This document shows positions 1-62,761 of a DNA stretch of 64,000 bases, piece after piece. The stretch comes from Escherichia coli. Its GTDB lineage: Bacteria > Pseudomonadota > Gammaproteobacteria > Enterobacterales > Enterobacteriaceae. Each line of letters starts with the position of its first letter. Position 1 is the stretch's first letter. The translations under genes were made by a program, and so were the position numbers. The stretch lies in assembly GCF_030013595.1 (NCBI RefSeq), contig NZ_CP122768.1; one strand, given 5' to 3'. The notes under the pieces were generated by a model. The model did no database searches and was not told where the DNA came from. It saw nothing but the letters and a program-made list of their open reading frames with translations.

Positions 1-103
1 ACTGTAATGCTCTGTTTGGTTCATTGCACCAGTTTAATGCTGCACTTTCGTTACCTTCAAAAAGATCAATAGCCTTTTGTATAACATCATTTTTTGTCAG
101 CAT
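1..103 (-). CDS. Partial ORF cut by window edge; N-terminal segment resembling DUF2384 (Xre/MbcA/ParS antitoxin C-terminal domain)
   Basis: Minus-strand translation from ATG at 101-103 reads MLTKNDVIQKAIDLFEGNESAALNWCNEPNRALQ, matching my recollection of the DUF2384 core (A..lFGg.e.A..WL..PnpaL). It overlaps the stop of the upstream Xre ORF in another frame and may be its frameshifted continuation. Confidence 0.35.
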   Translation of the reverse strand, partial: MLTKNDVIQKAIDLFEGNESAALNWCNEPNRALQ

Positions 104-419
104 GTTTTACACCTGAAGACGTTTTGAGTGCTTCGATAAGGCTACTTCGCTCTTCCTCTGTCATCCGAGATATGAGTAATGCAAGTTCTGCTGTTGTCTG
201 ATCATCACAAAAAAGGTAGTTCAACGGCACGTTTAACTCTGCTGCCATCCGTCGAAGCGTATCAATATCGGGGACATGGCGTCCTTTCTCATAATGATTC
301 ATACGACTGCTAGCCGATGCAGGATCAAAGCCAACAAGGAGACCCAGAGAGCGCTGTGATAAACCAGCCCTGCATCTCGCTTCCTTAAGTCGTTCTGGTA
401 TCGGATTTTTTTCAGACAC
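87..419 (-). CDS. Xre/Cro-C1 family helix-turn-helix transcriptional regulator (110 aa)
   Basis: ORF track; HTH_3-like segment LKEARCRAGLSQRSLGLLVGFDPASASSRMNHYEKGRHVPDIDTLRRMAAELNVPLNYLF. Does not match K-12 HipB from memory. The last codons run through an A6 tract (90-96) immediately before the stop. Confidence 0.8.
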   Translation of the reverse strand: MSEKNPIPERLKEARCRAGLSQRSLGLLVGFDPASASSRMNHYEKGRHVPDIDTLRRMAAELNVPLNYLFCDDQTTAELALLISRMTEEERSSLIEALKTSSGVKHADKK

Positions 420-503
420 TGATTCATCTTCATTGGCCTCGAATGCTTAGATTGTCTAAGTATCTGCCATTGTTGTATACTTAGCAATCCTAAGTTAATA
501 GCC

Positions 504-1076
504 TTGTTTTGTCATATGAATAGCCGAGTAACCAACCCTGAGTCGTACATATTTTCTGCAATCATCTTAATTGGCAAAGATAACTTCACCAGTAACGAAG
601 TAGCAAAAATTCTTATCGAGCGATTTTCACTTCCGAAAAATTATTTAAAGGCAAAAGCTTTTGCTTATAACCAAATTCAATCCCTGGTTAGAAAAGGATT
701 ATTAAACAAAGTAAGAAAAACAGGCGTGTATCAATATTTATACTCAGTCACAGCAGAATTCAATGTCGCAATAGAGTGCGTGAAATTAATTGAGGCAACC
801 CCAAAGTCTTCCTGTCAACTTGTTTCAAGTGCTACCAACCATGAACACAGAAATGTAAATATCCAAATAAAGTCTCTTATTGAAAAATACAGCAGTGAAT
901 TGGCGAAAGTATCAGGAGCAAAGGAGATTTATGAGGAATTGATAGTTGCTGTGCCGAGCAGGGAAAATGAATTCAGGAAGCTTTCTCTTGAACAAGAGAA
1001 AAAACACATCAAGATAAATGAAAAAATAAATACATTAATTGGAATTATTAATCAATCTCTTGCAGTAAGGCAATGA
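504..1076 (+). CDS. Hypothetical protein (190 aa), possible winged-helix DNA-binding N-terminus; divergent from the Xre gene
   Basis: ORF track; AT-rich codon usage; no recognisable catalytic motif. Alternative start at MNSRV (position 516). Confidence 0.5.
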   Translation: MFCHMNSRVTNPESYIFSAIILIGKDNFTSNEVAKILIERFSLPKNYLKAKAFAYNQIQSLVRKGLLNKVRKTGVYQYLYSVTAEFNVAIECVKLIEATPKSSCQLVSSATNHEHRNVNIQIKSLIEKYSSELAKVSGAKEIYEELIVAVPSRENEFRKLSLEQEKKHIKINEKINTLIGIINQSLAVRQ

Positions 1077-1110
1077 ATTTTAGCAAGTATTTGAAGCTAA
1101 ATGGAGTCAT

Positions 1111-1145
1111 GAAAAAGAGAGGGCAAAGCCGAACTCCGCCCTCTC
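1111..1145 (-). terminator. Candidate rho-independent terminator for minus-strand transcripts
   Basis: 8-bp stem GAGAGGGC/GCCCTCTC (1117-1124 / 1138-1145) with a 13-nt loop; on the minus strand it is followed by a U5 run (A-run 1112-1116 on plus). Loop is long, so weak. Confidence 0.3.
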
Positions 1146-1891
1146 CCGTCAAGCACTGATATATCTCATTAAAATGAGATTAACAGCGCGCACTCCTATA
1201 TGCTAGTCGTATATAAATATAATGTCAGCCAGTCCCGGATGCAACTCTTTAATGAAGTTCAGTACTCTCTTTTTTTAGTTATCGAAATGATAGTTGGTAC
1301 AAGGGAACACACGAAGAGGAAAATTGCGATGACTTTGACGCAGAGCATGTTGAGTCTATTATTGCGACCCTCGAAGCTCTGGATGCGTTAGATTTACGCC
1401 ACGGAAGATGGACTGTAAGTATCCCTCCAATAGTGCGACTCACTTACCCAGATTGTAAGTTCAAACGGTCGAAGGCACTAGATTCTGATAAGAATTTGAG
1501 GCGCATGAGTACAGGCATTCGATTGTCAGCTTCTGGGTAGTTGTGGGAATTCTGCTCAAAGTGCCGCTGGCCAAAACATATTGGGCGCTGGTCTGTGGCG
1601 GCAAAATGGTGTCACGTAAAAGATACAGATGTTCCAGTCTATTTTTGCCCAATAACGTGCCCCGGGTTCAGTTTTTTTGCTCGGGACTAAAACGCTTATC
1701 CAGATCAGCCGCCAGCTGTTCAATACTCTTCGTTGAGCCTTTATAAATATACCAATCAAACTGTTAAAAACTCGTTCAAATTCGACCAAATATTATTACT
1801 GGCTGATATTAGTTCGGTTAGGCAAAGCGCAACAAACAACTAAGAAGTGCGCCTCAAAAAATTAATTGTAAGGCGCCCCCCTAAAACACAT

Positions 1892-4219
1892 TTATTCTGT
1901 TATATTTCTTGGCAACATAGAAAAAGATGCTTGAGACAATCCTGCGCGCTTGAATTTATACCGTATATATGTTGACACTTCCATCTCATGGTTTGACAAC
2001 AAAATCTGACGATCTGAAAGCTCTACCCGTAACAAATCACTCAATGAAGCAATGTTAATCTCATCCATTGACTGTACTGGATCATCAATCAGTATAAATG
2101 GATTAAGCGCATATACCCTATTCAATGTTAGGAAAAATGCCAAACCTAATGATGCGATTTGCCCACTACTCATAGACAGGATTGCATCATGATCAGACTT
2201 CAGCGCAGTATTGAATTTGAGTATATCTCCTTTACCGCTCACTATAAACAAACCTAACCCACGCTGATAATTCTGTATGAGTCTTCCACTATATATATGG
2301 AATAACAGCTCTATATCACCAATAGTCTTTTTCGCATACTGTTTCGCAGTGTCGTCCAATTGCCGCCTAAGATTAACAATTTTTGCTTTTATTTTTTTGC
2401 CAGCTTCAATCCTAGAACTGAGCTTATCAAGCTCCGCTACTTTGGACTTGTACTCTTCGCTTTTGAATTTAGAATGAGCGGCTCTGAGATAGGATTCTTT
2501 ATTTTCAAAATCTGAAACACTAAGTGAGGTTATATCTGATGCGTTCAAGAAAGCCATCTCTAAGCTAGATGACCAGTCTAAAGGGAGCACATCCTTTTCT
2601 GGTTTTTTAGCTGTAGCAATAATCCCTTTTGCTTCATTAAACCGTAACAGCAGAGCTGCATCATCAGCCGTAAAACTAAGATCTTTTGATACGCCATAAT
2701 TTACCAACTGCAAAGCCACTTCACTTATGATTGAGAACTTAGATTCTGCTGCTGTGAGAGCCTTAAAAAGCACACTATCGAAATCTTTTGCAACTAGGTC
2801 ACGCTGCTGTGTGAATGCTGTTATCTGTAAATTTAGTAAGTCCTGTATTGACCTTACTGTCTCCTCCAACTTCTGGGCAGAAGCATCTATTTCAGATCGA
2901 ATTCTTTCCGCATTATTTACAGCGGCTTCCTCTAACGCAGCGTAAGTCGCCCATGATAACCCACAGAATGGACAACCGGAAATTTCCAAATCTTCACATT
3001 CTTGGTGTCGCCGCAGCAACTCTGCATGAGCATTTAGTAAATTTACAAGCTTTGCGTTCTTAGCTGCACTATCAGATTTAATTAGATCCCGTGCCTCAAT
3101 GAGACTATTTACACCAACCAAATCAGCAGCGTTCTTAAGACCGTTTAGGTCTACTTCATTTATCTCTGAAGCTGGCTTTCTGAATATCAAAAGATCATGA
3201 TCCAGCCCAACTAGCGTTGACTCCTTTACTTTCAGACCTTCATATCCAGCTACTTCAGAACCCAACTGAAGAGCCAACTTTATATCGACCTCTCTTTTTA
3301 AAAACGCATCAATATTACTATTAGCCTTTCTCGTCAGAACTTCATCAAAGTTCTGATATATTCTAAATATATTCCGTAATTCACGTATCAGAGTTTCAAT
3401 ATCTGTATCATTTACAGCCGATAGAGGCTGTTCAACATCCCAACCAGGTGACGGCGTCGCGGTACTTAACCGCTTGAAGTCAACGGAATTCTCGGCATCT
3501 TGAAACTGACCACTAAGCTGTTTAATTTTTTCATTCAACTCAGCCTGGAGGTCAGTATGCACTTTCCCCGTATAAGATTCCGTAATAATACTTTCTAACT
3601 CGGAGCAATATGATATCTGTCTCGTCAATTTATCGGTATTAATAAGATGCTCAATGCCTTTTTTTCTTTCAGTGGCATCCGTCGAGTACAGGTATCTATT
3701 CTGCCCTTGCTCAAGATAGTTCAATAAAGAGAAATTTTTTAAGAAGTTCTCTCCTAGAATACTCTCTAGTGCTTTAGAATCAAGACTCTCTCCAAACTTA
3801 TCGGAGTCTATACTGCTTATTTCGTAAAGCTTAAAAATAGAGAAGTTATCAGGTGCATTATTATCCGGGTTCGATAAATCCGCTATGGTAGCAACACGAG
3901 CTAGGAAAATTGACTCTCCTGAATCTTGATTTATGAGCTCAGCTCTAATAGCGATGTCGCCCTCTTTATTTCTATTCCAGTATATGTTTTCTTCAAATTG
4001 TTTTTTGCGCGAACGTTTTGCAACTGTTGCATCATTTGTATTGATAATTCTTTGTATAACGCCAGTAAACAAAAGCTCCAACGCATCAAATATGCTAGTT
4101 TTTCCAAAACCATTGGGGCCATCCAAGGTAATCATGGAGGCAGATCGAAAATCAATAGATGTATTTTCAAATGGCTTGAAATTTTCAATCTTGAGGCTGG
4201 ATATTTTCCATTTCTTCAT
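1892..4219 (-). CDS. SMC/Rad50-like ABC ATPase with coiled-coil and CxxC zinc-hook; candidate Lamassu LmuB-like (ABC-3C ATPase) component
   Basis: 775 aa. Walker A GPNGFGKTS (res 34-42), ABC signature MSSGQ, Walker B ILIDDP, H-loop LSNHE near the C-terminus; long central region with CPFC (res 416-419, nt 2963-2974) at about the midpoint. Start overlaps upstream gene stop by 35 nt. Confidence 0.85.
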   Translation of the reverse strand: MKKWKISSLKIENFKPFENTSIDFRSASMITLDGPNGFGKTSIFDALELLFTGVIQRIINTNDATVAKRSRKKQFEENIYWNRNKEGDIAIRAELINQDSGESIFLARVATIADLSNPDNNAPDNFSIFKLYEISSIDSDKFGESLDSKALESILGENFLKNFSLLNYLEQGQNRYLYSTDATERKKGIEHLINTDKLTRQISYCSELESIITESYTGKVHTDLQAELNEKIKQLSGQFQDAENSVDFKRLSTATPSPGWDVEQPLSAVNDTDIETLIRELRNIFRIYQNFDEVLTRKANSNIDAFLKREVDIKLALQLGSEVAGYEGLKVKESTLVGLDHDLLIFRKPASEINEVDLNGLKNAADLVGVNSLIEARDLIKSDSAAKNAKLVNLLNAHAELLRRHQECEDLEISGCPFCGLSWATYAALEEAAVNNAERIRSEIDASAQKLEETVRSIQDLLNLQITAFTQQRDLVAKDFDSVLFKALTAAESKFSIISEVALQLVNYGVSKDLSFTADDAALLLRFNEAKGIIATAKKPEKDVLPLDWSSSLEMAFLNASDITSLSVSDFENKESYLRAAHSKFKSEEYKSKVAELDKLSSRIEAGKKIKAKIVNLRRQLDDTAKQYAKKTIGDIELLFHIYSGRLIQNYQRGLGLFIVSGKGDILKFNTALKSDHDAILSMSSGQIASLGLAFFLTLNRVYALNPFILIDDPVQSMDEINIASLSDLLRVELSDRQILLSNHEMEVSTYIRYKFKRAGLSQASFSMLPRNITE

Positions 4220-4940
4220 GAATCAGAGTCTCGATTAGTTTGTCTGCTTCAATCCCAGATGCAGAAGCATTAAAGATTTTGAGATGAAGACCGGTCAATT
4301 TTTTCTCGGCGAGTGCTTCCTTTACATAAATATCAAGCGGCTTTAGTGAGCTTTCCTTAACAGGAACCTTTACAAATGGAAGCTTTATAAAAATTCTCGC
4401 CGCGACGCTATATAATGTAGGCGATAGTGGTTGATCTCGATATTCTGCAAACATCCTATCATCGACAACAATCGCTGAAACGCTTTCGAAGTTGTGCCCT
4501 TCTAACAACCTAAGCTCTTCCTCGCTGTAATAAAGAAAATATTTTTTAAAATAATATGGATTCTCTTCAATTCCAAACACCTTACTCTCAATTCCATTAA
4601 AATCAACTCGGTGCCTTAATTTATGCAAAATAATCAGATCGGTATTTTTATCGAAAGCAGGATCAGATTTGAATGTTTCAGGAGCATACAGTAACACTAA
4701 TTTATTCAGCACCTGCGGTGATGGTATATTTTCACACTCAACCACAGCGAGGAATCGCTTCCTATCTCCACTATCCTGACTAAAATAAGTCAAAGACTTA
4801 TAATCAACACCTTCAAGACCAGCTAAAGTTTCTCCTGCCGAATACTCTATGGTGACGTCATCTGCTTTAGAATAGTCGCCTGTATTAAACAAAGTAAACT
4901 CATGTTTCAAGGCAGCCTGTAGAACAATATCTTTAATCAT
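4185..4940 (-). CDS. Middle component (251 aa) of the three-gene ATPase operon; candidate LmuC/kleisin-like protein
   Basis: ORF track; overlaps the upstream gene by 8 nt and the downstream gene by 35 nt (translational coupling); AT-rich; no motif recognised by eye. Confidence 0.75.
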   Translation of the reverse strand: MIKDIVLQAALKHEFTLFNTGDYSKADDVTIEYSAGETLAGLEGVDYKSLTYFSQDSGDRKRFLAVVECENIPSPQVLNKLVLLYAPETFKSDPAFDKNTDLIILHKLRHRVDFNGIESKVFGIEENPYYFKKYFLYYSEEELRLLEGHNFESVSAIVVDDRMFAEYRDQPLSPTLYSVAARIFIKLPFVKVPVKESSLKPLDIYVKEALAEKKLTGLHLKIFNASASGIEADKLIETLIHEEMENIQPQD

Positions 4941-6195
4941 TCAACTTCACCCTCGCCTCTTCCTTTGAAATTATTTTTGCATCAAAGGCTTTAGTTATTT
5001 TGTTACGATCCTTACCCATCAATGAAAACTCATCTTCTACAGCATCCCGCGAAGCTCCGGTAGCTGCACAAAATCGCTCAGCGGGTGAAAAAATATTTGC
5101 TCTAGCTGCGATTAGCCATTGATATTCAACTAAGATATCTATCAGCTCTGGATCGCTTTTCAGCTGCTCTATTAGATCTTCAGCAAACCTATGCTCCCGT
5201 CGAGCATTGTCTGCCGAAATTGCTGTTGGCAAATAAAAATCTCCGGCAGAGCACCTATAGTAAGGAGGCTTTTGCTCACTCAGTGGCGCTTTATCTATAT
5301 CGTAGATCACATCCACATAATCATAAACACTGTTCTCACTCACGACCATTGTGGAAGATCCAAAACATAACGACTTCCACAACCATATAAATGGAGTATC
5401 ACCCAACTCTTTAATCTGATCGTAAACATTTGCAACTTTTTGAATAACAGTTCTATCTGCTGTTTTTTCCATTGTATTGGTATACCCATACAATGATTTA
5501 CAAACGGCCATCCTGGCTTGGAACATTTTGTATACAATGTCGTCTTCATGGGTAGCGGTGAGGCTTAATAACTCTACAATCTTCTCACTTTTTAAAGTTT
5601 GAGTAAACGCGGCTTGTGCGGCGCTCATTAACCCATCCTGATTGCACGCGTGTATATATATTACTTGAGCGGCAATATGACTCTGCAAAGCCTCGAACTT
5701 CAAATTCACTAAAAAATCACTGCAAGGTAACTCTTCGGAAACCAGGTACTTCTCAATTTTTGATTTCGTTTTTTCTTCAACATCTTGGAGATAGCAGTAA
5801 GGCAGTCCATCGTAAGTATAAAATTTAACGACATTCCCATTGCTGCCAACAAAATCAGAAGCATCATCAAGGCGCGCAGATGTATGAAAATATCTTTTGG
5901 TAGTCTTATCACACAACATATATGTAGATGCAGCTTTTTCGAGAGCCTCCCTATAGGCAGCTCTTTTATCATCTGCTAGCGCTTTTACCTGATGCGTAGA
6001 AACTGCAACTCCATTTTCAATTATCGAAAAATCATCAATGCTGTCGATTTGCAACTCAAACGACATTTTATTGAGCACACATTCTATGGAATGATAAAGC
6101 GCTAAATGCCCTTGATAAATAAACCCACTCCATGTAGGTGCAGCTGTATGAGGATGGGAGGAAGCCGATTTCGACATGCAATATGTCCTAGGCAA
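4933..6195 (-). CDS. Putative effector (420 aa) of the three-gene operon; candidate LmuA-like protein with possible N-terminal PD-(D/E)xK-type nuclease fold
   Basis: First gene of the minus-strand operon. N-terminal segment GFIYQGHLALYH...IDSIDDFSIIENGVAVSTHQVK contains a D...D...(E/Q)xK-like arrangement; assignment is by eye only. Alternative start at M7 (position 6177). Confidence 0.75.
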   Translation of the reverse strand: MPRTYCMSKSASSHPHTAAPTWSGFIYQGHLALYHSIECVLNKMSFELQIDSIDDFSIIENGVAVSTHQVKALADDKRAAYREALEKAASTYMLCDKTTKRYFHTSARLDDASDFVGSNGNVVKFYTYDGLPYCYLQDVEEKTKSKIEKYLVSEELPCSDFLVNLKFEALQSHIAAQVIYIHACNQDGLMSAAQAAFTQTLKSEKIVELLSLTATHEDDIVYKMFQARMAVCKSLYGYTNTMEKTADRTVIQKVANVYDQIKELGDTPFIWLWKSLCFGSSTMVVSENSVYDYVDVIYDIDKAPLSEQKPPYYRCSAGDFYLPTAISADNARREHRFAEDLIEQLKSDPELIDILVEYQWLIAARANIFSPAERFCAATGASRDAVEDEFSLMGKDRNKITKAFDAKIISKEEARVKLND

Positions 6196-6524
6196 ATTTA
6201 GAGACAGAGTCAGAAGTAACCTTCTAACTCAGTAGAATATGATCTTAATTTCTGTATCCGATGTTTATATTTTTTGTTGAACGCGCCCAGCGGCGTTATG
6301 AAAACTTCCTTGATTGTCATTTTTATGCATTCTCTTGATCGATAGGAATTTAAATCCCAAAAAGATTAAAAAAACACCCAAAAACGGATGTTTATTCGAC
6401 ACTGCCTGCGTGCCATGAGTGCACCGCCATCAATTAAATGGATCTTATCGAGTGATACTGTATATCACTGATGGTTTTTTACTCCATTCCCCTGAAAATG
6501 GACGCAACTTCCCCGATGCGGCTC

Positions 6525-7712
6525 TCAGCCGCACACCCGCTGTTGCGCCAGTGGCTCATGCATCAGGACCAGCTCTGTCAGACGGTAGCCCCGCTTCAGC
6601 CCCGTAAAACGCATCTGACATCCGCACAGGATGCACTTTAGCGGGTCAACCTTCAGTAACCGCTGATACATCCCTCTCCACCTGATTTGCATCGCCGTCT
6701 TTCTCACCGTCTCCGTTATGACGTACACAACATCTTCCAGTAACCGGCGCTTTACCGGACTCAGGAAACCGTAGTACCTCACCATACGGAACCCCTTATC
6801 CGCCACATGCCAGGAGAACCTTTCCATAAACTCATCACCACTCATCACCAGGTATTCTTCCCGTTTTGTCCGGTGACTGTTGTAACGCAGACCAATTTCA
6901 TCCTGACCAGCATAGTGCTCCAGACGGCTCATCGGCACCGGCGGTTTTTTCAGGTAAGAGCCGAAGTACACCGCCACATGTGTGGCGTTATCCATCACCC
7001 GGGATACGTTGACATTCCAGCCCCGCCGGTAATGACTGTCCAGGAAGCGATTCCAGTCCCGTCTGCTGCTTCCTTCAACTGCCAGCGCATCCGGTATCAC
7101 CAGCTCCGGGTATTTTCGTGACAGTAACCACGTTATCCTGTAACGCCACATGCTCATCACCTTACGGGCGTAAAAATGAAGGTTTTTCCAGGTGTGGTCT
7201 GGTGTCACGCCGCCGGCCGTTGTCGACAGGTGAATGTGCGGATGCCACTGCTGGTCACGTCCCCATGTGTGGATGACCGTGAATATCCCCGGCACCACAT
7301 CTGCCTGGCGGCAGATTTCCTGTATCACATCCGCAGCAATGCGGCTCATCTCTGCCAGTAACCACCGGTTGTGGAACACCAGGGACCAGTACTGGCAGGG
7401 AAGTGTGAACACAATATGCTGCCACGGACAGTCGGGAACCAGACTCAGCAGATACTGTATCCACTGTGCGCCAGCCTTCACTCCGCAGTGCGGGCAGGAG
7501 CGACTTTTACACCGGAAGCAGACCTTTTTTGTGTGGCAACAGTCCGGAGATGAACAGCACCACTGTGTGTACCCCATCAGCGTGGTTCCGCACGCCATGA
7601 TTTTTGTCACCGACTCAATGACTACCGGACGCACTGAACCTTCCGGTTGTTTCTCCAGCCAGTTAAGCCAGCGGTTTCCCTGCTGAAAAATGTCGGCAAA
7701 ACGGGGAAGCAT
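6525..7712 (-). CDS. tnpA: IS91-family transposase TnpA
   Basis: N-terminal Cys-rich zinc-binding region (CCSSPDCCH...CFRCKSRSCPHCG), HUH motif HPHIH, conserved Tyr-containing C-terminal region. Likely start at MLPRF (7712), sharing one nucleotide with the orf121 stop; ORF track extends to 7757. Confidence 0.85.
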   Translation of the reverse strand: MLPRFADIFQQGNRWLNWLEKQPEGSVRPVVIESVTKIMACGTTLMGYTQWCCSSPDCCHTKKVCFRCKSRSCPHCGVKAGAQWIQYLLSLVPDCPWQHIVFTLPCQYWSLVFHNRWLLAEMSRIAADVIQEICRQADVVPGIFTVIHTWGRDQQWHPHIHLSTTAGGVTPDHTWKNLHFYARKVMSMWRYRITWLLSRKYPELVIPDALAVEGSSRRDWNRFLDSHYRRGWNVNVSRVMDNATHVAVYFGSYLKKPPVPMSRLEHYAGQDEIGLRYNSHRTKREEYLVMSGDEFMERFSWHVADKGFRMVRYYGFLSPVKRRLLEDVVYVITETVRKTAMQIRWRGMYQRLLKVDPLKCILCGCQMRFTGLKRGYRLTELVLMHEPLAQQRVCG

Positions 7713-8077
7713 CAGAAGGGCGGGGGGACTCCGTCCGGCCAGTGAACCGTGCCACACTCCGGGCAGTACATGCCGCCGGCGCTGATACCGGCAAGAATGG
7801 TCGCAAACTCCCGCTCCGTGCAGCGGGCTATTTCAGGATACCCTTCGTCATCGACACGAACAAACCAGAAGACCAGCTTTTTGTTTCCGGCATCCACAAA
7901 GAAGGGAATATTCAGGTCTGCGCAGCACTCAACGGCATCGTCAAAATTATCAAAGCGCAGAGCTTCTGCGTCTTCTTCGTCAAAGAAGTCATCGTCGTGA
8001 AGCTTCACGACATAGCGGGGAAGTTTGCTTCTTTGAGGGGCAGGTTTTCGTTTACGGGGTTTAGCTGAACGGGACAT
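7712..8077 (-). CDS. IS91 accessory ORF (ORF121-like, 121 aa)
   Basis: 121-aa ORF immediately upstream of and overlapping tnpA, as in IS91. Confidence 0.65.
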   Translation of the reverse strand: MSRSAKPRKRKPAPQRSKLPRYVVKLHDDDFFDEEDAEALRFDNFDDAVECCADLNIPFFVDAGNKKLVFWFVRVDDEGYPEIARCTEREFATILAGISAGGMYCPECGTVHWPDGVPPPF

Positions 8078-8964
8078 ATAACTACCTGAAAGACAATGAT
8101 ATTGTCTGTTTTTATAACGGTAATTTCAGGCCATGACAAGCCGCAGCCGCCAAGCTGCCTACTCGAGCGATATCGCTATGATATCACCGAATGTAACATA
8201 CCTGTAGGGTCAAAAAAAGGGTCAGCCAAACATTCTGGAGTGTTCGGTATCGTTGGTACCATTCATGCAAAATGGACTTAAATCTTAAGAAAGACACTCC
8301 ATTAGCTTAAGCTTCCCTACCTTACCCTACCAATACACCTAGCCAGCCGTGAGAACGCTACCGCCATCAGAGGCATTAGTCCCGATTAAGTATCGATGCA
8401 ACCAAATGTTACCAAAATTCATGAATTGTTCAAGAAGGCAATCAGATAATCCCTAAAGCTTTATGGGCCTGGTTATGCGATTACATTGGGAAATGGTTCA
8501 TGAACAGAAGTAGAGCAAGCTGCCAAGAAATGCTCATAAGAGGCGAATTTCCTGTTAGTTCATGAAGCCACCTGGAAGTGAATTCATCTTTCTATTAAAA
8601 ATATTCATTTAAAGCAAAGAGATATGTCATCTGTGGTTTATGAACTGGATTCTCGCTCAACATAAGTTAAATGTGGTGGGTTTGTTCTTAAGTTCATGTG
8701 TTCCGCTCTTTCAGTAGCTTAACTGATGAATCAGTCAGCAGCTCTTGCCGTGCAAGCTACGCGGCGGTTCGTACCAGATTGGCCACCTCCATCTCCTGGT
8801 TCGCTTTCCCCTCCCCCCGGTAAACCTCACCCAACGTTAATTAATGATGTCAGTATGTGGGCGCTATCCTTGTATGTAAAATCCACTGACGATTATGCCC
8901 ATCTGTGAAAAAAACTCACAATGCCATTCGATGCATCTCCATACTGAACGAGGCGTTATCGTCT

Positions 8965-9864
8965 TTATCGCCCCGTAGTGGATATCAGAAAATCAATCAG
9001 GGCCTTCACTCTTTTCGTTTTACCCGCGTTTTTGGGGTAATAGAGATACACTGGCGGGTAGGTTTTCCAGTAGCTCTCCATCACCGGAATAAAGCGCTCC
9101 CTGTCCGGCTGTAACTGCCAGACAGGCTCAAACAAGCGCCCAATTCCCAGCCCGTTACGGATCCCGTCTGCCATAACGTCAATATCGTTGCTGATTAACT
9201 GCCCCGGCATCTCAACGGTCAACTGCTCACCGCGATCGTTCAGGAGCAGCGGAAGGATGCGGTTGTTGGTGATAAAACGGTAACCAATCAGCTGGTGATG
9301 ACAGAGATCTGCCGGCACTTCAGGCGTTCCATGTCGGGAGAGATACGCTGAGGATGCATATAATCCTTCACGAAACGGTTTCATTAACGGTCGGGCCACC
9401 ACCCCTCCCTCAAGAATATCGCCAAAACGGATCCCCAGATCAAAACGCTCTTTGATGATATTCACGGTACCGTCGTAGACCGAAATTTCTAACTGTATAC
9501 CCGGATATTGCTGACAGAATTCTGCCATCGCAGGCTTAAGAATTAACAGGTAGGCAAAACGCGAGAGCGTAATTCGCACCATCCCAGAGGGCTCCTGATG
9601 CTGGTCGCGAATGCTTTCAAGCGAGTTTTCCAGCGACTCCACCGCCGCAGCGGTCTGTTCCAGCAATAATTGACCGGTTTCCGTCAGCTCTATACGGCGG
9701 GTCGTACGCACAAAAAGCGGATGGCCGATATACTCTTCCAGCAGCTTTAGTGCATTGCTGACGGAGGGAGGCGTAATTTCCAGTTTCCTTGCGGCTGCCG
9801 AAATATTGCCCTCCCGCGCAATGCTCTGGAAGATGCGAATCTGGTTATAAAGAGCGTTATTCAT
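8965..9864 (-). CDS. LysR-family transcriptional regulator
   Basis: 299 aa; N-terminal HTH (ISAAARKLEITPPSVSNALKLLEE) and LysR substrate-binding domain; divergent from the downstream oxidoreductase operon. Confidence 0.9.
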   Translation of the reverse strand: MNNALYNQIRIFQSIAREGNISAAARKLEITPPSVSNALKLLEEYIGHPLFVRTTRRIELTETGQLLLEQTAAAVESLENSLESIRDQHQEPSGMVRITLSRFAYLLILKPAMAEFCQQYPGIQLEISVYDGTVNIIKERFDLGIRFGDILEGGVVARPLMKPFREGLYASSAYLSRHGTPEVPADLCHHQLIGYRFITNNRILPLLLNDRGEQLTVEMPGQLISNDIDVMADGIRNGLGIGRLFEPVWQLQPDRERFIPVMESYWKTYPPVYLYYPKNAGKTKRVKALIDFLISTTGR

Positions 9865-10000
9865 AATGTTTTCCTAAAGCAATTCTCGCCTGATTATTAA
9901 GTACAGTCTAAAAATGCTTAAGTCAATGACCCTCTAATCTTCCTGAAATACGCCTCTTATACTTTAGTCTCTTTCTACTACGACCTGAGTTCAGGAGACT

Positions 10001-10312
10001 ATGATGCGAATTTTATGTCTGGATATCCCTGCCCCTGGAGCATCGCTGGAGAAATATGCTCCGCACCTCAACGCTGAAGCGCTGCACGCCTGGGGATTGT
10101 ATAAATCAGGCTTCATCCGCGACATCTACTTCCGTCAGGACAGACCTGGCGTCGCTATTTTTCTTGAATGTGACTCTGTCGATGAAGCGATGAACGTTAT
10201 GGCCGAATTCCCGTTGGCAAAAGCAGGCTTACTAAGCTTCGAGTGTATACCGCTTGGCTCCTTTATTAACTGGGAAAATCTCTTCGCCGATGAATTTAAA
10301 AATAAAGAGTGA
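10001..10312 (+). CDS. Small alpha+beta-barrel protein (YciI/muconolactone isomerase/Dabb-like), 103 aa
   Basis: ORF track; size and operon position; product assignment is tentative. Stop overlaps the next gene start (ATGA-type). Confidence 0.55.
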   Translation: MMRILCLDIPAPGASLEKYAPHLNAEALHAWGLYKSGFIRDIYFRQDRPGVAIFLECDSVDEAMNVMAEFPLAKAGLLSFECIPLGSFINWENLFADEFKNKE

Positions 10313-11010
10313 GGACCGATATGAAACCTGCATATAAACCAGTGCTATGTGTCGTTTCCAGCCATCCGATTAAAGGCGCATCCGGTGTACCAACCGGTTT
10401 TTTCCTGGCCGAGCTGACTCATCCGCTGAAAGTACTGGAAGATGCCGGAATAAAAACAACAATAGCCAGTATTCGCGGGGGGCAGCCACCGGTGGATGGA
10501 TTTGACCTCAGCGACCCTGTTAACGCCTGGTACTGGAACGAAACCGATTTTCAGCAGCGCCTGGCAACAACACCTGCGTTATCCGAGCTGAAAGGTGCCG
10601 ATTACAGCGCAGTTTTCTTTGCAGGTGGTCATGGGACCATGTGGGATTTCCGTGATAATCAGGATGCCCAGCGTATTATCCGCGAAGTGTATGAAAGTGA
10701 TGGGATTGTCTCAGCCGTCTGCCACGGGCCTGCGGCATTGGTTGACGCAAAACTCAGTAGCGGCGAATACCTGATAAAAGGGAAAAATGTGGCGGCCTTT
10801 ACCAACAAGGAAGAGGAAGAAGTTCACACAACAGATGTGGTTCCCTTCCTGCTTGAAACCGCACTTCGCGAGCATGGTGCGCTTTATCATGAAGCTCCAA
10901 ACTGGTCTGAAAACGTGGTTACCGACGATCGCCTTATCACGGGGCAGAATCCCGCTTCAGCACATGGGGTTGGTGTGGCGCTGTTAAATGCACTCCGCCG
11001 GACAGCTTAA
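10309..11010 (+). CDS. DJ-1/PfpI (ThiJ) family type-1 glutamine amidotransferase-like protein
   Basis: 233 aa; nucleophile-elbow-like AVCHGPAAL motif typical of DJ-1/PfpI proteins. Confidence 0.75.
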   Translation: MRTDMKPAYKPVLCVVSSHPIKGASGVPTGFFLAELTHPLKVLEDAGIKTTIASIRGGQPPVDGFDLSDPVNAWYWNETDFQQRLATTPALSELKGADYSAVFFAGGHGTMWDFRDNQDAQRIIREVYESDGIVSAVCHGPAALVDAKLSSGEYLIKGKNVAAFTNKEEEEVHTTDVVPFLLETALREHGALYHEAPNWSENVVTDDRLITGQNPASAHGVGVALLNALRRTA

Positions 11011-11083
11011 TTAATTCATCGTTACTCACCTTACTTGGCCGGTTTAAGTCAGCCACGATCCGGCCTTTTTTCAGGAGCTGAAT

Positions 11084-12031
11084 ATGAAAACACTACCTCC
11101 AGTCGCACTAGGTACATGGTCCTGGAGCACAGGCTTTGCCGGCGGCGACACCGTCTTTGGTAATCATCTTTCTGATACTCAGATGGCAGAAGTGTTCACT
11201 GCGGCCATGAGTAAGGGCCTCAATCTCTGGGATACCGCAGCAGTATATGGTATGGGGAGTTCCGAGACTGTGCTGGGAGCATTAGTCCGTCAGTTTCCCC
11301 GCGAGAACATAATTTTATCCACCAAATTCACGCCGCAGATTGCGGACAAGCAGTCTGCGCAGCCTGTCAGCGATATGCTTGAGGCCAGCCTTGGGCGCCT
11401 GGGCGTGGACGCGATTGATATCTACTGGATCCATAATCCCCTCGACGTCGAAAAATGGACGCCAGGACTGATCCCACTTTTACAAAGCGGTAAGGTAAAA
11501 CGCGTAGGTGTTTCCAACCACAATCTGGCACAAATCAGACGCGCCAATGAAATCCTTAACGCTTCCGGTTATTCCCTCAGTGCAGTACAAAATCACTACA
11601 GCCTGCTCTATCGCGCTTCTGAAGAGGCCGGGATCCTTGATTATTGCCGACAAAATAACATCACGTTCTTTGCTTACATGGTCCTGGAGCAAGGCGCGCT
11701 CAGTGGTCGTTATGATTCAAATCATCCCATGCCTGCCGGGAGTGGCCGGGCCGAAAGTTATAACGCCGTACTGCCGCAGATAGAAAGACTAACCGCCGCC
11801 ATGAAAAAAATGGGAGCCGAAAGGAATGCCAGCGTGGCACAGATAGCCATCGCATGGGCTATTGCGAAAGGTACCCTTCCCCTCGTTGGTGCGACTAAAG
11901 TCCATCACGTTCTGGACGCCGCCTGCGCTTCAGACATCCAGTTACGCGATGAGGAAATCATCCTGCTGGAACAACTCGCCGCAGAGACCAGAGTGGATAC
12001 ACGAGGCGCCTGGGAAAAACCGATGGTGTAA
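11084..12031 (+). CDS. Aldo/keto reductase family oxidoreductase
   Basis: 315 aa; AKR-like sequence (LWDTAAVYGMGSSE..., ...GVSNHNLAQI...). Confidence 0.85.
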   Translation: MKTLPPVALGTWSWSTGFAGGDTVFGNHLSDTQMAEVFTAAMSKGLNLWDTAAVYGMGSSETVLGALVRQFPRENIILSTKFTPQIADKQSAQPVSDMLEASLGRLGVDAIDIYWIHNPLDVEKWTPGLIPLLQSGKVKRVGVSNHNLAQIRRANEILNASGYSLSAVQNHYSLLYRASEEAGILDYCRQNNITFFAYMVLEQGALSGRYDSNHPMPAGSGRAESYNAVLPQIERLTAAMKKMGAERNASVAQIAIAWAIAKGTLPLVGATKVHHVLDAACASDIQLRDEEIILLEQLAAETRVDTRGAWEKPMV

Positions 12032-12133
12032 AGCCCGTCCGGAACAGACTGTCATGAATGACACACACGAACGGGCTGTTCCGGGTGATTCTAATCTGTA
12101 TCACTTTTACTGCTTTGTATGAATGGTGAGAAT

Positions 12134-12812
12134 ATGAAAATCATTTGCCTCGAAGAAAATTATCTCGACAGCGAGTTAGGGCGAGCGTGTATGCCTGTTG
12201 CGCTTGAGCAGGCACCTTTCCTTGGCGACTGGGGGAAAACCGTCGCTGATGGTCATAATCCTGACCGACTCCCTGCTTTCCCGCTTTAATAAACTGAATG
12301 TGCCACTCTATCTTCATCCCGGGTTACCGCTTAAAAGCGTACAGCAGGCCTACTTCACGGGCTTCAGCGCAGAGGTCAACGCCAGGCTTTCTATGTTTGC
12401 CTGGGGCTGGCATCACGAAGCGGGGATCCATTTGTTGCGGCTGATGTTATCGGGTGCATTTGATAAATATCCCCACTTGCAGGTAATCAGTGGCCACTGG
12501 GGGGAGATGTTACCCTTCTGGCTCCAGCGTCTTGATGACAGCCTACCACTGGCTGCAACGGGTCTGTCACGCACGCTAACGAGAACCTTCCAGCAACACG
12601 TTTACGTTACCCCGTCAGGTATGCTGACACTGCCGCACTTCAAGTTTATCTACGCGTTAATGGGGGCTGAAAGGATCCTGTTCTCCGTCGATTATCCCTA
12701 TCAGACCCCTGGACGGTGTAAAAACCTTTATAGACAGTCTGCCCGTCAACAAGGCTGAAAAAGAGGCCATCGCGTTTCGCAATGCAGAACGTTTACTGGG
12801 CATCACGGTTTA
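12134..12812 (+). pseudogene. Disrupted amidohydrolase-2 family gene (frameshifted/truncated)
   Basis: Three consecutive frames carry pieces: MKIICLEENY... (12134-), the 186-aa ORF 12198-12758 (…ISGHWGEMLPFWLQRLDD…FSVDYPYQ…) and a C-terminal tail …KEAIAFRNAERLLGITV ending ~12812. No single intact ORF. Confidence 0.55.
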
Positions 12813-12963
12813 GTTCACCGTTTCATGATGACTGAGCACATTGTGATCAGCCGACAATTATTAGTTTTTGCCTAAAAGTGAATGAGCCTTTACTGCTCTA
12901 AAAAAATAATGTTGTCACTCTATACTGGATTTAATATTCACCAAAGATGTTTAACTGATTGAA

Positions 12964-13536
12964 ATGAAAAATATCCTTGTTATTTCAGGTCATCCTGAGC
13001 TTACCCATTCCGTCGCCAATGCCACTATTCTTGATGAAGTGGAGACCGCCCTTCCCGATGTTGAGATTCGTCGTCTGGACAGGCTCTATCCGGATGGCAA
13101 ATTCAACATCGCGGCGGAGCAGAAAAGCCTGCTCAGGGCCGATGTGATTGTCTGGCAGTTCCCTTTTTCCTGGTATGGGCTGCCAGGATTAATGAAAAAA
13201 TGGCTGGACGAGGTCTTTGTTCACGGCTTCGCGCATGGCTCAACGGCGAAACTGGGCGGTAAAAAGCTGATCCTCTCCTTTACAACGGGAGCGCCAGAGG
13301 AGCTCTATACCGTCGACAGTTTCTTTGGCCATACCATTGAAGAGTATCTTATTCCGTTCGAAACCACGGCAAGGCTGTGCAATCTTGAGCTGCTGGCGCC
13401 GGTTTATACCTGCGGTATCAGCTATGCCGACCGGGATGCCGACAAAATCGCGCAGCAAAAAACGCTTGCCCGGGAACACGCTTCAAGGCTTGTCGAACTG
13501 CTCAATTCCGTCGTGAATAATCCAGAGGGAGAATAA
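12964..13536 (+). CDS. Flavodoxin-like NAD(P)H dehydrogenase (quinone) family protein
   Basis: 190 aa; MKNILVISGHPE... N-terminus and size typical of NAD(P)H:quinone oxidoreductase / KefF-like proteins. Confidence 0.75.
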   Translation: MKNILVISGHPELTHSVANATILDEVETALPDVEIRRLDRLYPDGKFNIAAEQKSLLRADVIVWQFPFSWYGLPGLMKKWLDEVFVHGFAHGSTAKLGGKKLILSFTTGAPEELYTVDSFFGHTIEEYLIPFETTARLCNLELLAPVYTCGISYADRDADKIAQQKTLAREHASRLVELLNSVVNNPEGE

Positions 13537-13538
13537 CA

Positions 13539-14558
13539 ATGCAGTATACCCGGCTCGGTAAAAGTGACTTACTTGTTTCCCGCATCTGCATGGGATGCAT
13601 GGGGTTTGGCGATCCGTCGACGGGTCAGCATAGCTGGACGCTGGACGAAACAGCAAGCCGCGACATCATTCGCTATGGCCTTGAAAAGGGCATCAACTTT
13701 TACGATACCGCTATAGCCTACCAGAATGGCTCCAGTGAGCGATACGTTGGCCGGGCATTACGGGAGATGGCGAAACGCGATGATATCGTCCTGGCCACCA
13801 AGTTTCTGCCGCGAACCCCCGCACAAATTGCCGGAGGGATCAGCGGAAAAGAGGCAATCGCTCAATCCCTTGACCAGAGCCTGAAGAATCTGGGGATGGA
13901 CTATATCGACCTCTACATCTACCACATCTGGGATTACAACACGCCCATTATCGACGTGCTTGAAGCGTTACATACCGCTGTTACTGCTGGCAAAGTACGA
14001 GCTGTTGGTATTTCAAACTGCTATGCCTGGCAGCTGGCGAAGGCGAACGCCCTTGCTGAACGCGAAGGGCTGACGCCCTTTGTTTCCGTACAGAGCCACT
14101 ACAATCTAATTATGCGCGAAGATGAACGGGAGCTCTTCGGCCTGTGCACTGAGGATAATATCGCAATGACCCCCTATAGCGCGCTGGCCAGCGGCCGCCT
14201 CTCTCGTAAAGAAGGCTATACACGGCGAGCCACAGAGGATGACTATGCGCGTGGAAAATATGACAGCACGGCTGAACAGGATCGCAACATTATTGAGCGT
14301 GTAGCCGAACTGGCCGAACGTCATCTGGTGTCAATGACGGAAATATCTCTCGCTTGGCTGCTGACAAAAGTCACATCACCTGTCGTAGGGGCTACAAAAA
14401 AAGCTCATGTCGATGGCGCGGTAAACGCAGTAAATCTTCAACTAAGTCCGGAGGAAATTCAGTTTCTGGAAGAAACCTACCAGCCGCATGTTCTGACGGG
14501 GATCATGGCGCAAAATACGCCGCAAACGAAAGATGTTAAGCAGGTCTGGATGCGATAG
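13539..14558 (+). CDS. Aldo/keto reductase family oxidoreductase (Tas/YajO-like)
   Basis: 339 aa; AKR hallmarks (…INFYDTAIAYQNGSSE…, …GISNCYAWQ…). Confidence 0.85.
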   Translation: MQYTRLGKSDLLVSRICMGCMGFGDPSTGQHSWTLDETASRDIIRYGLEKGINFYDTAIAYQNGSSERYVGRALREMAKRDDIVLATKFLPRTPAQIAGGISGKEAIAQSLDQSLKNLGMDYIDLYIYHIWDYNTPIIDVLEALHTAVTAGKVRAVGISNCYAWQLAKANALAEREGLTPFVSVQSHYNLIMREDERELFGLCTEDNIAMTPYSALASGRLSRKEGYTRRATEDDYARGKYDSTAEQDRNIIERVAELAERHLVSMTEISLAWLLTKVTSPVVGATKKAHVDGAVNAVNLQLSPEEIQFLEETYQPHVLTGIMAQNTPQTKDVKQVWMR

Positions 14559-14673
14559 CCCTTATTCACTTTTCCTCCTCTCGTCTTTGAGAGCGCCAGT
14601 AGCGGTCGGTTACGTTCTTACCAGCACCAGTTGATCGAACGTCTTAAACAGTAATGTCAGTAAAAAGATCATC

Positions 14674-15399
14674 GTGAAAAAGACTTTTATGCTTTTAATT
14701 TGCATGCTAATAAGCAGCCCTGTCTTTGCAACAAAACCGGACGCGCCGAATAAGCCGGAGATGAATATCTTCGAGCTCGGCATCAGACCCGATCGGGACA
14801 ACGACTTTGCAGACGTGGCCAGACAGACGATTTCCGCTTCGGTTGATCATGAAGCTGGTACACTGGCGATGTATGCCCTGAAACGCAGCGACAATTCAGG
14901 TCAGGCATTCATGTTCGAACTCTATGAAAATGAGCGTGCTTATCGCAAACATCTCAATGCCGCCCCATACAAAGCATTCGCTGCTCGTGCACCTGACATT
15001 ATTGACAGGAAGAAGAAAATTACCCTGGAGCCACAGTTTCTGGGCGACAAACACATCATACCGAATGAACGAACTATCAATAATCTGGTGATCGTCGAAG
15101 TAAAGCCTGAATTTCAGAGCGAATTTAGAAACATCGTCCTTCCTGAAATGGTCGAGTCGCTCAAAGTAGAGAAAGGCGTGTTAGCCATGTATGCCGGTAC
15201 AGATTCAGAGACTCCAAAACGATGGTATTTCTATGAGATTTACGCCAGTGAGGAGGATTATCAACTGCACCGACAAACGCTGCACTTCCTGGATTACCTC
15301 AGGCAAACGGCGCATATGAGCGCCAGGAAGGACGCAATCCCGGTAAAACCGGTATTTCTTCGTAACAAAGGCGGAATCAAACAGGAGCCGCAACGTTGA
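14674..15399 (+). CDS. Secreted tandem ABM (antibiotic-biosynthesis-monooxygenase-like) domain protein
   Basis: 241 aa; N-terminal signal-peptide-like MKKTFMLLICMLISSPVFA; two repeats of similar length, each with an ...AMYAL/AMYAG...YE.Y...Y..H pattern. Confidence 0.65.
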   Translation: MKKTFMLLICMLISSPVFATKPDAPNKPEMNIFELGIRPDRDNDFADVARQTISASVDHEAGTLAMYALKRSDNSGQAFMFELYENERAYRKHLNAAPYKAFAARAPDIIDRKKKITLEPQFLGDKHIIPNERTINNLVIVEVKPEFQSEFRNIVLPEMVESLKVEKGVLAMYAGTDSETPKRWYFYEIYASEEDYQLHRQTLHFLDYLRQTAHMSARKDAIPVKPVFLRNKGGIKQEPQR

Positions 15400-15414
15400 C
15401 CAGTAAGGATTAAC

Positions 15415-16218
15415 ATGAAAAGCGTACTTGCAGCAGCGGCTATGTCGCTTGTTATTTCTGATTTTGCCAATGCTGAGGAAACAAGAGGTAAAGCTATGAT
15501 GAAAATAGAACCGTCAGCGATTTCGGAAGCTGATATTCGTTCCGTCTCACCGGCTCTCGCGCGCTTTGGTCGCGAAGCTATTACTGAAGATCTGTGGACA
15601 CGCGACGCCCTCTCACCGAGGGATCGTAGTGTGGTGACCGTCGCCATGCTGATTGCCCGCAACCAGCCTGCCGAGCTTAAGCACTATATTGACGTCGCTC
15701 TCGATAGCGGCGTGACGCCAGCGGAATTATCAGAAATCATTACCCATCTGGCGTTCTACTCAGGTTGGCCAAATGCAATGTCAGCCGTCAGCGTGACCAA
15801 AGCAGTATTTGAAACTCGTGGCGTCACGGCAGATGCACTTCCTGAAGCTTCTCCGGACCTGCTTCCTCTCAATCAGGAAGCAGAAAAGCAGCGTTCAGAG
15901 ACAGTGGAAAAAAATGTTGGCCCAATATCTCCAGGCCTGGTTAAATTCACTGCTGATCCACTCTTCCTGGATCTCTGGCAAAGACCCGCGCTGAAACCCC
16001 GCGACAGAAGCCTGATTACGGTCAGCGCCTTAATCGCATCCGGACAGAGCGCGCAGATTGGCTATCACCTCAATAGAGCAATGGATAATGGACTTTCTGT
16101 TGAGGAAGCTGGTGAGATCGTTACCCAGGCCGCCTTCTATGCTGGCTGGCCAAACGCATTTACCGCTGCTCCGGTTGTGGGAGAGGTGCTAAACAATCGA
16201 TCATCGAGTAAAAGGTAA
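15415..16218 (+). CDS. Tandem carboxymuconolactone-decarboxylase (CMD) family protein, possibly exported
   Basis: 267 aa; two repeats each with ...LW.R.ALSPRDRS..TVA.LIA... and ...HL.RA.D.G...E..E...H.AFY.GWPNA... motifs; hydrophobic N-terminus. Confidence 0.7.
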   Translation: MKSVLAAAAMSLVISDFANAEETRGKAMMKIEPSAISEADIRSVSPALARFGREAITEDLWTRDALSPRDRSVVTVAMLIARNQPAELKHYIDVALDSGVTPAELSEIITHLAFYSGWPNAMSAVSVTKAVFETRGVTADALPEASPDLLPLNQEAEKQRSETVEKNVGPISPGLVKFTADPLFLDLWQRPALKPRDRSLITVSALIASGQSAQIGYHLNRAMDNGLSVEEAGEIVTQAAFYAGWPNAFTAAPVVGEVLNNRSSSKR

Positions 16219-62700: not shown

Positions 62701-62761
62701 CCGTTGTTCCAGCCATACCGCCCGCGCAGATTTTAAAAAATTGTCTGCGACTGACGTCCAT
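59714..62761 (-). CDS. fdnG: Formate dehydrogenase-N catalytic selenoprotein subunit (Sec codon read-through)
   Basis: Two ORFs (62174-62761 and 59714-62125) in the same frame joined by an in-frame TGA at 62174-62176; Tat signal (SRRQFFK); joined product ~1015 aa matches recalled FdnG (…DNQARV-U-HGPTVASLAPTFGRGAMTNHW…). Confidence 0.95.
62128..62176 (-). other. Selenocysteine UGA codon (62174-62176) with downstream SECIS-type hairpin region
   Basis: In-frame TGA followed on the mRNA by CACGGACCAACGGUAGCAAGUCUUGCUCC…, which can form a stem-loop immediately 3' of the UGA as expected for a bacterial SECIS. Confidence 0.8.

Follow-up and report, generated by a model that had tools for sequence, protein, structure and literature searches.

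At positions 1892-6195 of a 64,000-nucleotide (nt) stretch of Escherichia coli DNA (contig NZ_CP122768.1, assembly GCF_030013595.1; this whole stretch is called the window) lie three genes, here named lmuACB, on the minus strand, and the question they raise is whether they form an immune system or whether their ATPase belongs to a DNA repair family and merely has unrelated neighbours. An initial annotation, made from the letters alone, had taken them for a candidate Lamassu or ABC-three-component (ABC-3C) system with the order effector, middle protein and SMC-like ATPase. Profile matches for all three proteins and synteny in other genera bear this out. Judged by sequence, the three genes of lmuACB make up a complete Lamassu (ABC-3C) system that belongs to the long, Rad50/SbcC-like subfamily, and we consider it very likely that it works as a long Lamassu immune system in which a Cap4 DNase effector would be controlled by LmuB and LmuC. 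The three genes are:

4933-6177, minus strand: lmuA, effector, 414 amino acids (aa) from the ATG at 6177; Cap4-type PD-(D/E)xK nuclease (predicted) plus ABC-3C C-terminal domain (CTD) of type 1, CTD1
4185-4940, minus strand: lmuC, middle component (MC) of type 1, MC1; 251 aa from an ATG; 8 nt overlap with lmuA
1892-4219, minus strand: lmuB, Rad50/SMC-like ABC ATPase; 775 aa from an ATG; 35 nt overlap with lmuC

The tight coupling of the genes through these two overlaps, which had been described from the start, was confirmed by the list of open reading frames (ORFs). In this mechanical list the longest lmuA ORF begins at a TTG and covers 4933-6195 (420 aa). It is very probable that lmuA in fact starts at the ATG at 6177, because RefSeq places the start there in identical copies, because the starts of homologues coincide with it and because an AGGA is found 8 nt upstream of it.

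The hidden Markov model searches with Pfam and PADLOC that had been suggested as a check were run, and all three proteins match Lamassu profiles. LmuA matched the PADLOC LmuA profile over its full length (7.4e-21), and Pfam found a Cap4_nuclease domain in its N-terminal part (8.3e-5) together with ABC-3C CTD1 (3.3e-25, model positions 1-241 of 243). LmuC was matched by PADLOC LmuC PDLC03870 (2.8e-14) and by the Pfam family MComp1, the ABC-3C Middle Component 1 (2.5e-9), which was also found in 20 of 20 homologues. For LmuB the PADLOC profile PDLC03859 gave 7.2e-69, with residues 3-762 aligned on profile positions 2-601 of 611, while Pfam reported AAA_23, AAA_15 and SMC_N, the two SMC_N halves lying at 6-52 and 185-748 and marking an N-terminal/C-terminal split. 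The features by which a Lamassu system is recognised are found here: LmuA has an effector domain at its N-terminus and an ABC-3C domain at its C-terminus, the gene between lmuA and lmuB encodes a small middle component, LmuB is a split-head SMC/Rad50-like ABC ATPase with a coiled coil between its halves, and the three genes form a conserved operon that occurs in defence islands and mobile elements. The earlier statement that the effector and the middle protein have no domain that can be named with confidence did not hold, as Pfam assigns a Cap4 nuclease with CTD1 to the one and MC1 to the other. The CTD and MC nomenclature used here is that of Pfam and of the papers citing the ABC-3C classification.

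Relatives in other genera show the same arrangement. In Pseudomonas aeruginosa and Vibrio alginolyticus, where LmuB is 37% identical, a Cap4-CTD1 protein (407 aa), an MComp1 protein (224 aa) and an LmuB (775 aa) are encoded in this order with overlapping junctions. The operon of P. aeruginosa sits between a type III restriction-modification (R-M) system and Gabija, and that of V. alginolyticus adjoins a NERD-helicase gene. As gene order, protein sizes and overlaps are all kept at this distance, the operon is not a chance arrangement of ORFs. Clustered at 50% identity, 1.84 billion proteins contain 672 representatives of the Cap4-CTD1 LmuA family, of which 418 reach E<=1e-10, and more than 400 LmuB homologues were found, those listed being mostly 770-788 aa long. 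The system is thus of a known kind, a catalogued Lamassu subtype that is recognised by PADLOC and NCBI PGAP and whose proteins occur identically in RefSeq, where the genes are named 'ABC-three component system protein', 'ABC-three component system middle component 1' (lmuC) and 'AAA family ATPase'. Genome annotation gains nothing new from lmuACB.

Within LmuA the following parts can be distinguished:

5608-6177, minus strand: Cap4 nuclease domain of LmuA (aa 1 to ~190), approximate extent
6031-6033 (D49) and 5983-5991 (Q63-x-K65), minus strand: predicted active-site residues of LmuA, chosen by conservation
4936-5607, minus strand: CTD1 of LmuA (aa ~191-414), defined by Pfam; presumed module for docking to LmuB and LmuC and for oligomerisation

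The residues D49, H62, Q63, V64 and K65 are invariant in 19 LmuA homologues with identities down to 29%, and we predict that the D...QxK arrangement is a version of the PD-(D/E)xK site. K65 corresponds to the catalytic lysines that were mutated in VcLmuA (K57A) and SalEnt LmuA (K68A) (PMC12663957; 10.1101/2025.03.14.643221). Fold matches to LmuA each span only ~170-200 residues, which is the nuclease domain, and for the C-terminal half neither a fold search nor a sequence search returned a counterpart in the PDB. In the AlphaFold2 (AF2) model this half consists of helices and a small beta-sheet (strands 306-317, 354-357 and 401-404). The docking and oligomerisation role of CTD1 is presumed by analogy with CTD7 of the short Lamassus.

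LmuB carries a complete set of motifs for an ATPase of the Rad50 type:

4097-4120, minus strand: Walker A GPNGFGKT (aa 34-41, with K40), invariant in an alignment of 21 homologues
2963-2974, minus strand: zinc-hook CxxC, here CPFC (aa 416-419), with C416 and C419 invariant
2159-2170, minus strand: ABC signature SSGQ (aa 684-687), invariant
2081-2098, minus strand: Walker B FILIDD (aa 708-713), invariant including D712 and D713

Both the Walker A lysine K40 and the CxxC pair, which had been singled out at first as residues to mutate, are therefore present, the latter as C416/C419. The LEQGQ region and H744 of the H-loop are also invariant in the 21 homologues. The CxxC lies centrally in a coiled-coil region of ~430 residues, and the zinc hook of Pyrococcus furiosus Rad50 (1l8d) aligns weakly to its position in a profile comparison (E 0.66). 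The best PDB sequence matches of the LmuB profile are Rad50 heads (7e-5), and no solved short LmuB was seen among the 60 best of the 70 matches (E<=10). Other defence ATPases scored far lower than the Lamassu profile, with E-values of 1e-6 to 3e-12 for Gabija GajA, Septu PtuA, PARIS AriA and MADS MAD3 compared to 7e-69 for LmuB; their matches mostly cover the N-terminal ~100 residues around Walker A, and the longer ones (mad3, AriA) are weak. Gabija, Septu, PARIS and MADS were accordingly rejected as families for LmuB, and the operon also lacks a partner gene for a TOPRIM, HNH or AriB protein.

In the AF2 model of LmuC (predicted local distance difference test score, pLDDT, 83.5), an alpha/beta core is followed by a linker of low confidence (186-201) and, at the C-terminus, by a mini-domain of three helices (202-247). 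Residues R62, D101, E125/E126 and K132/K133 of LmuC are conserved. A motif (D/E)59-x-K61 is kept among close homologues and lost in the MC1 proteins of P. aeruginosa and Vibrio. As this motif is not conserved in the distant MC1 proteins, we do not claim LmuC as an active second PD-(D/E)xK nuclease and regard its core as probably a non-catalytic relative of that fold.

To which kind of Lamassu does the operon belong? Haudiquet et al. (PNAS 2025, PMC12663957) describe a long clade that makes up 536 of 3,829 systems, in which LmuB is ~800 aa long with one CxxC and a Walker B of the form hhhhDD, both LmuC and LmuA's CTD are longer, and AlphaFold3 (AF3) models show an extra small LmuC domain after an unstructured linker and a CTD with helices and a beta-sheet; short LmuB proteins have ~600 aa and a deviant Walker B, hhhhD[Q/S/T/E]. 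Li et al. (10.1101/2025.03.14.643221) make the same split and group CTD1-5, MC1 and the larger LmuB as a Rad50/Mre11-like subfamily. With an LmuB of 775 aa, a single CxxC, an hhhhDD Walker B, MC1 and a CTD from the CTD1-5 group, lmuACB has the properties of the long subfamily, and both the mini-domain after the linker in LmuC and the beta-sheet in the LmuA CTD that are predicted for long systems were seen in our AF2 monomer models. It lacks those of the short type II systems, having CTD1 and not CTD7, MC1 and not MC3, and a longer LmuB with the DD Walker B. The operon therefore falls into a catalogued subfamily and is not, as had been considered, a divergent or uncharacterised subtype. It resembles the published long Lamassus in every diagnostic feature, including the order lmuA-lmuC-lmuB and the Cap4 effector on CTD1.

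The solved and best-studied systems are short ones, namely Vibrio cholerae DdmABC and Salmonella LmuACB (Cap4-CTD7/MC3), and the Bacillus type I system, with Cap4-CTD12 and without LmuC, is also short. With DdmABC and LmuACB of Salmonella enterica the operon shares the gene order, a Cap4-type nuclease with a catalytic lysine and the Walker A lysine K40 of LmuB, and sensing of DNA ends followed by activation of the nuclease is probably the common logic. The differences are that LmuB is here ~175 aa longer with the canonical DD Walker B and has a single zinc hook, which the V. cholerae LmuB does not possess, and that LmuA ends in CTD1 and not CTD7 and LmuC is MC1 and not MC3. To the solved short chains no sequence similarity was detectable, and fold similarity was limited to the nuclease domain. 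The likeness to LmuA-LmuC-LmuB/DdmABC that was proposed initially thus stands for the family and the gene order and fails for the DdmABC subtype: CTD, middle component and LmuB clade all differ, and lmuACB is related to DdmABC at the family level only. In single-sequence and profile searches of the PDB, in which the 60 best of 70 matches were considered for the LmuB profile, no solved Lamassu chain was matched by LmuA, LmuB or LmuC; these searches say no more than how distant the operon is from the short systems. In the literature we found no experimental structure of a long-type Lamassu; only one validated member is reported, which is not a Cap4 system, and we found no paper testing the operon described here.

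Two further systems share parts with lmuACB. SbcCD/Mre11-Rad50 has a zinc-hook coiled-coil ABC ATPase as well, and SbcCD has been proposed in the literature to be ancestral to Lamassu, LmuC being derived from the C-terminus of SbcD in this proposal. However, SbcCD works with the Mre11/SbcD phosphoesterase, which does not occur here, where the nuclease is an unrelated PD-(D/E)xK enzyme (Cap4); LmuB is shorter than SbcC (775 compared to 1,048 aa); and the operon is mobile, rare and AT-rich whereas SbcCD is encoded in the core genome. With hhalign, the alignment of LmuB and SbcC was limited to the segment of signature and Walker B (the C-terminal head of SbcC), and LmuC gave no significant match to E. 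coli SbcD. The Cap4 nucleases of CBASS are activated when a cyclic oligonucleotide binds to their SAVED domain, in whose place LmuA has CTD1, presumably under the control of LmuB and LmuC, and no CD-NTase gene is found near lmuACB.

We next consider the genomic context. The operon is AT-rich compared to the core genes on its flanks, as stated in the initial annotation, with a GC content of 0.36-0.42 over 1751-6250 and of ~0.45-0.55 in the flanking core genes. Its locus has hipBA to one side and the ydeT/ydeS fimbrial genes (ydeT-ydeO region) to the other, and integrase genes of its island sit just left of the window. An Rfam scan found no RNA family within or near the operon. Among 5,426 complete E. 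coli genomes 17 bear the operon, 14 with intact and 3 with truncated copies; MG1655 belongs to the searched collection and is not one of the 17, in agreement with the claim that K-12 has no counterpart. The block of 6.3 kb at window positions 1-6338 was found at >=99.5% identity (at least) on 17 plasmids of 150-337 kb, mostly conjugative, in Klebsiella, E. coli, Raoultella and Citrobacter, one of them an NDM-4 IncF plasmid, and no LmuB homologue was found in a phage collection of 50,697 records. This block, which holds an Xre/MbcA-like gene (cut by the window edge), a C-protein-like helix-turn-helix (HTH) gene, an ORF of 190 aa and lmuACB, has recently moved between plasmids and chromosomes. 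The operon would also lend itself to asking how a suicide system that senses DNA ends can tolerate the very plasmid on which it is carried, and how it affects the spread of resistance plasmids.

As regards the genes that accompany lmuACB in the block, the HTH protein (87-419, minus strand, 110 aa) matches PADLOC 'Control_protein' at 3e-25, an R-M C-protein-like regulator, and also RstR-type repressors. The divergent ORF of 190 aa (504-1076, plus strand) gave a faint AbiEi-like (winged-helix) match only. Other E. coli plasmids, which lack Lamassu, carry the module 1-1409 with 97% identity, so that it is probably an independent unit.

Upstream of lmuA the window differs from other copies by an insertion sequence:

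6178-6338, minus strand: retained native upstream stretch of lmuA, 161 nt, with the ribosome-binding site and probable promoter region
6339-8164, minus strand: IS91, with tnpA at 6525-7757 and orf121 at 7712-8077 (121 aa); adjacent to the system and not part of it
8165-8210, minus strand: displaced upstream element with a GATATC-N5-GATATC palindrome, normally ~165-205 nt upstream of lmuA

The IS91 element that had been recognised beside the operon is confirmed by its transposase, which reaches 287 bits (1.7e-85) against transpos_IS91 (cutoff 125). Compared to the uninterrupted copy of E. coli LR-48, the element was inserted after CTTG, without duplication, 161 nt upstream of lmuA, and it is absent from all 14 other intact E. 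coli copies. The stretch 6178-6338 is identical to LR-48 up to the IS91 junction and is conserved in a homologue of 88% identity (L011). An alignment of the upstream regions of LR-48, L011 and the window showed that the palindrome element of ~45 nt is conserved in all of them, and it may be an operator or promoter. When promoters and terminators were scanned for, shuffled sequence gave more promoter-like sites than the real one, in which the region upstream of lmuA had none, and no promoter is assigned.

How might such a system act? Analogy with the short Lamassus that have been solved (V. cholerae DdmABC, Salmonella LmuACB) suggests the most likely mechanism. Folded at the zinc hook, a dimer of LmuB would together with LmuC dock the CTD of one LmuA, whose nuclease would be kept inactive as a monomer. 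DNA ends or hairpin and replication intermediates from phages or plasmids would be recognised by the LmuB heads and LmuC, and ATP-dependent engagement of the heads would free or reposition LmuA. Oligomerisation of LmuA driven by its CTD would then bring two Cap4 domains together to form an active site (with D49 and Q63-x-K65), which would cut double-stranded DNA non-specifically, so that the infected cell would be killed or arrested before the invader spreads (abortive infection). What is seen here and supports this proposal is the family membership of all three proteins, the intact ATPase and nuclease motifs, the conserved overlapping operon and the mobile and defence context; release and tetramerisation have been established experimentally for the short Cap4 Lamassus.

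Several observations weigh against this picture. The proposal carries over to the long type what is known of another subfamily, and neither in sequence nor in fold was a similarity of CTD1 and MC1 to the solved CTD7, CTD12 and MC3 proteins detected. With no relation between CTD1 or MC1 and their solved counterparts CTD7 and MC3, the step of release and oligomerisation is less certain than the reading as an immune system. Li et al. say no more than that short systems depart from the Rad50/Mre11 principle, and explicitly leave it undecided whether the Rad50-like subfamily adheres to it (10.1101/2025.03.14.643221), from which it follows that the long type could keep its nuclease tethered. LmuA would in that case stay at the LmuB heads, with an endonuclease-fold LmuC in the role of the C-terminal part of Mre11/SbcD, and would cut locally at the end or hairpin so that the invader is degraded directly. 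Such Mre11-Rad50-like action would fit the closeness of the LmuB profile to Rad50 heads and not to solved short LmuBs among the 60 best of 70 matches, the canonical single zinc hook and hhhhDD Walker B, the lack of a fold relation between CTD1 and the tetramerising CTD7, the published AF3 models in which LmuA and LmuC of long systems are arranged around the heads of LmuB in the manner of SbcCD (PMC12663957), and the restriction of the release model to the short subfamily by Li et al. We nevertheless consider this main alternative unlikely, as the Cap4 nucleases studied so far (CBASS Cap4 and short LmuAs) are reported to be activated by oligomerisation, the Lamassu members tested to date act as abortive-infection systems and direct evidence for tethered cleavage is lacking for any Lamassu. 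As an intact long, Rad50-like Lamassu with a Cap4 effector that is native to E. coli, lmuACB is a convenient model for asking whether long Lamassus release their nuclease or tether it like Mre11-Rad50. A further point against a functional immune system concerns this particular copy, since IS91 lies between the operon and the conserved element and makes its expression uncertain. The copy might be silent or misregulated if IS91 took away the native upstream control region, given that the insertion splits off the conserved palindrome element and that no other intact copy carries it. This is a possibility we take seriously but doubt: the three ORFs are intact and window positions 1800-6300 are 100% identical to an uninterrupted copy, the remaining 161 nt of conserved upstream DNA could hold the promoter, and tnpA of IS91 is oriented in the same direction as the operon, so that read-through is possible.

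The distribution of the block allows yet another emphasis. The operon could serve mainly in conflicts among plasmids or between plasmid and host, by exclusion or an addiction-like stabilisation, with the chromosomal copy as a recent passenger and phage defence as a secondary role. The occurrence of the nearly identical block on large, mostly conjugative plasmids of four genera, its absence from the phage records and the discovery of DdmABC through plasmid elimination are consistent with this view, which we judge quite improbable as a main function because anti-plasmid and anti-phage activities coexist in DdmABC and SalEnt LmuACB and relatives are found in chromosomal defence islands beside R-M and Gabija; it also differs in emphasis and not in molecular mechanism from an immune function. 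Finally, LmuB might have been a housekeeping or accessory repair ATPase of the SbcCD, RecN or RecF type with unrelated neighbours. Weak N-terminal matches to RecF, SbcC, Rad50 and SMC exist, and some source databases label homologues 'exonuclease SbcC' or 'recombinase RecF'. However, with 35.5 bits for RecF (172 needed) and 18.6 bits for SbcC (478.5 needed) the scores remain far below the NCBIfam cutoffs and involve the Walker A region only, no Mre11/SbcD phosphoesterase gene stands alongside, and the neighbours are syntenic ABC-3C partners in an operon that occurs, on mobile AT-rich DNA, in just 17 of 5,426 E. coli genomes. The repair explanation is thereby effectively refuted, RecN being rejected along with SbcC and RecF as a family for LmuB, and the Lamassu assignment of the initial annotation stands.

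Beyond IS91, the region 8965-16218 is a variable insert with genes for a LysR-family regulator, a DJ-1/PfpI-like protein, aldo-keto reductases, a KefF-like and a PcaC-like protein. In E. coli LR-48 the ydeT fimbrial region follows directly after the island, without this insert. The LysR-family gene (8965-9864, minus strand, 299 aa) is intact in the window and is annotated as a pseudogene with an internal stop in the closest complete genome (HCP5S3_I2). In the fimbrial region, the usher ORF at 19387-21651 (754 aa) covers only positions 141-877 of the usher profile, and ~430 nt upstream of it (region 18958-21651) are without a long ORF; the N-terminus of the usher seems to be missing or frameshifted, possibly as a pseudogene like ydeT of K-12. 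Near the far end of the window, Rfam identified SECIS_3 at 62121-62179 on the minus strand (84 bits, E 1e-18), between the ORFs 59714-62125 and 62174-62761, which marks the in-frame UGA for selenocysteine that is to be expected in the large subunit of an fdnG-like formate dehydrogenase and is an ordinary feature.

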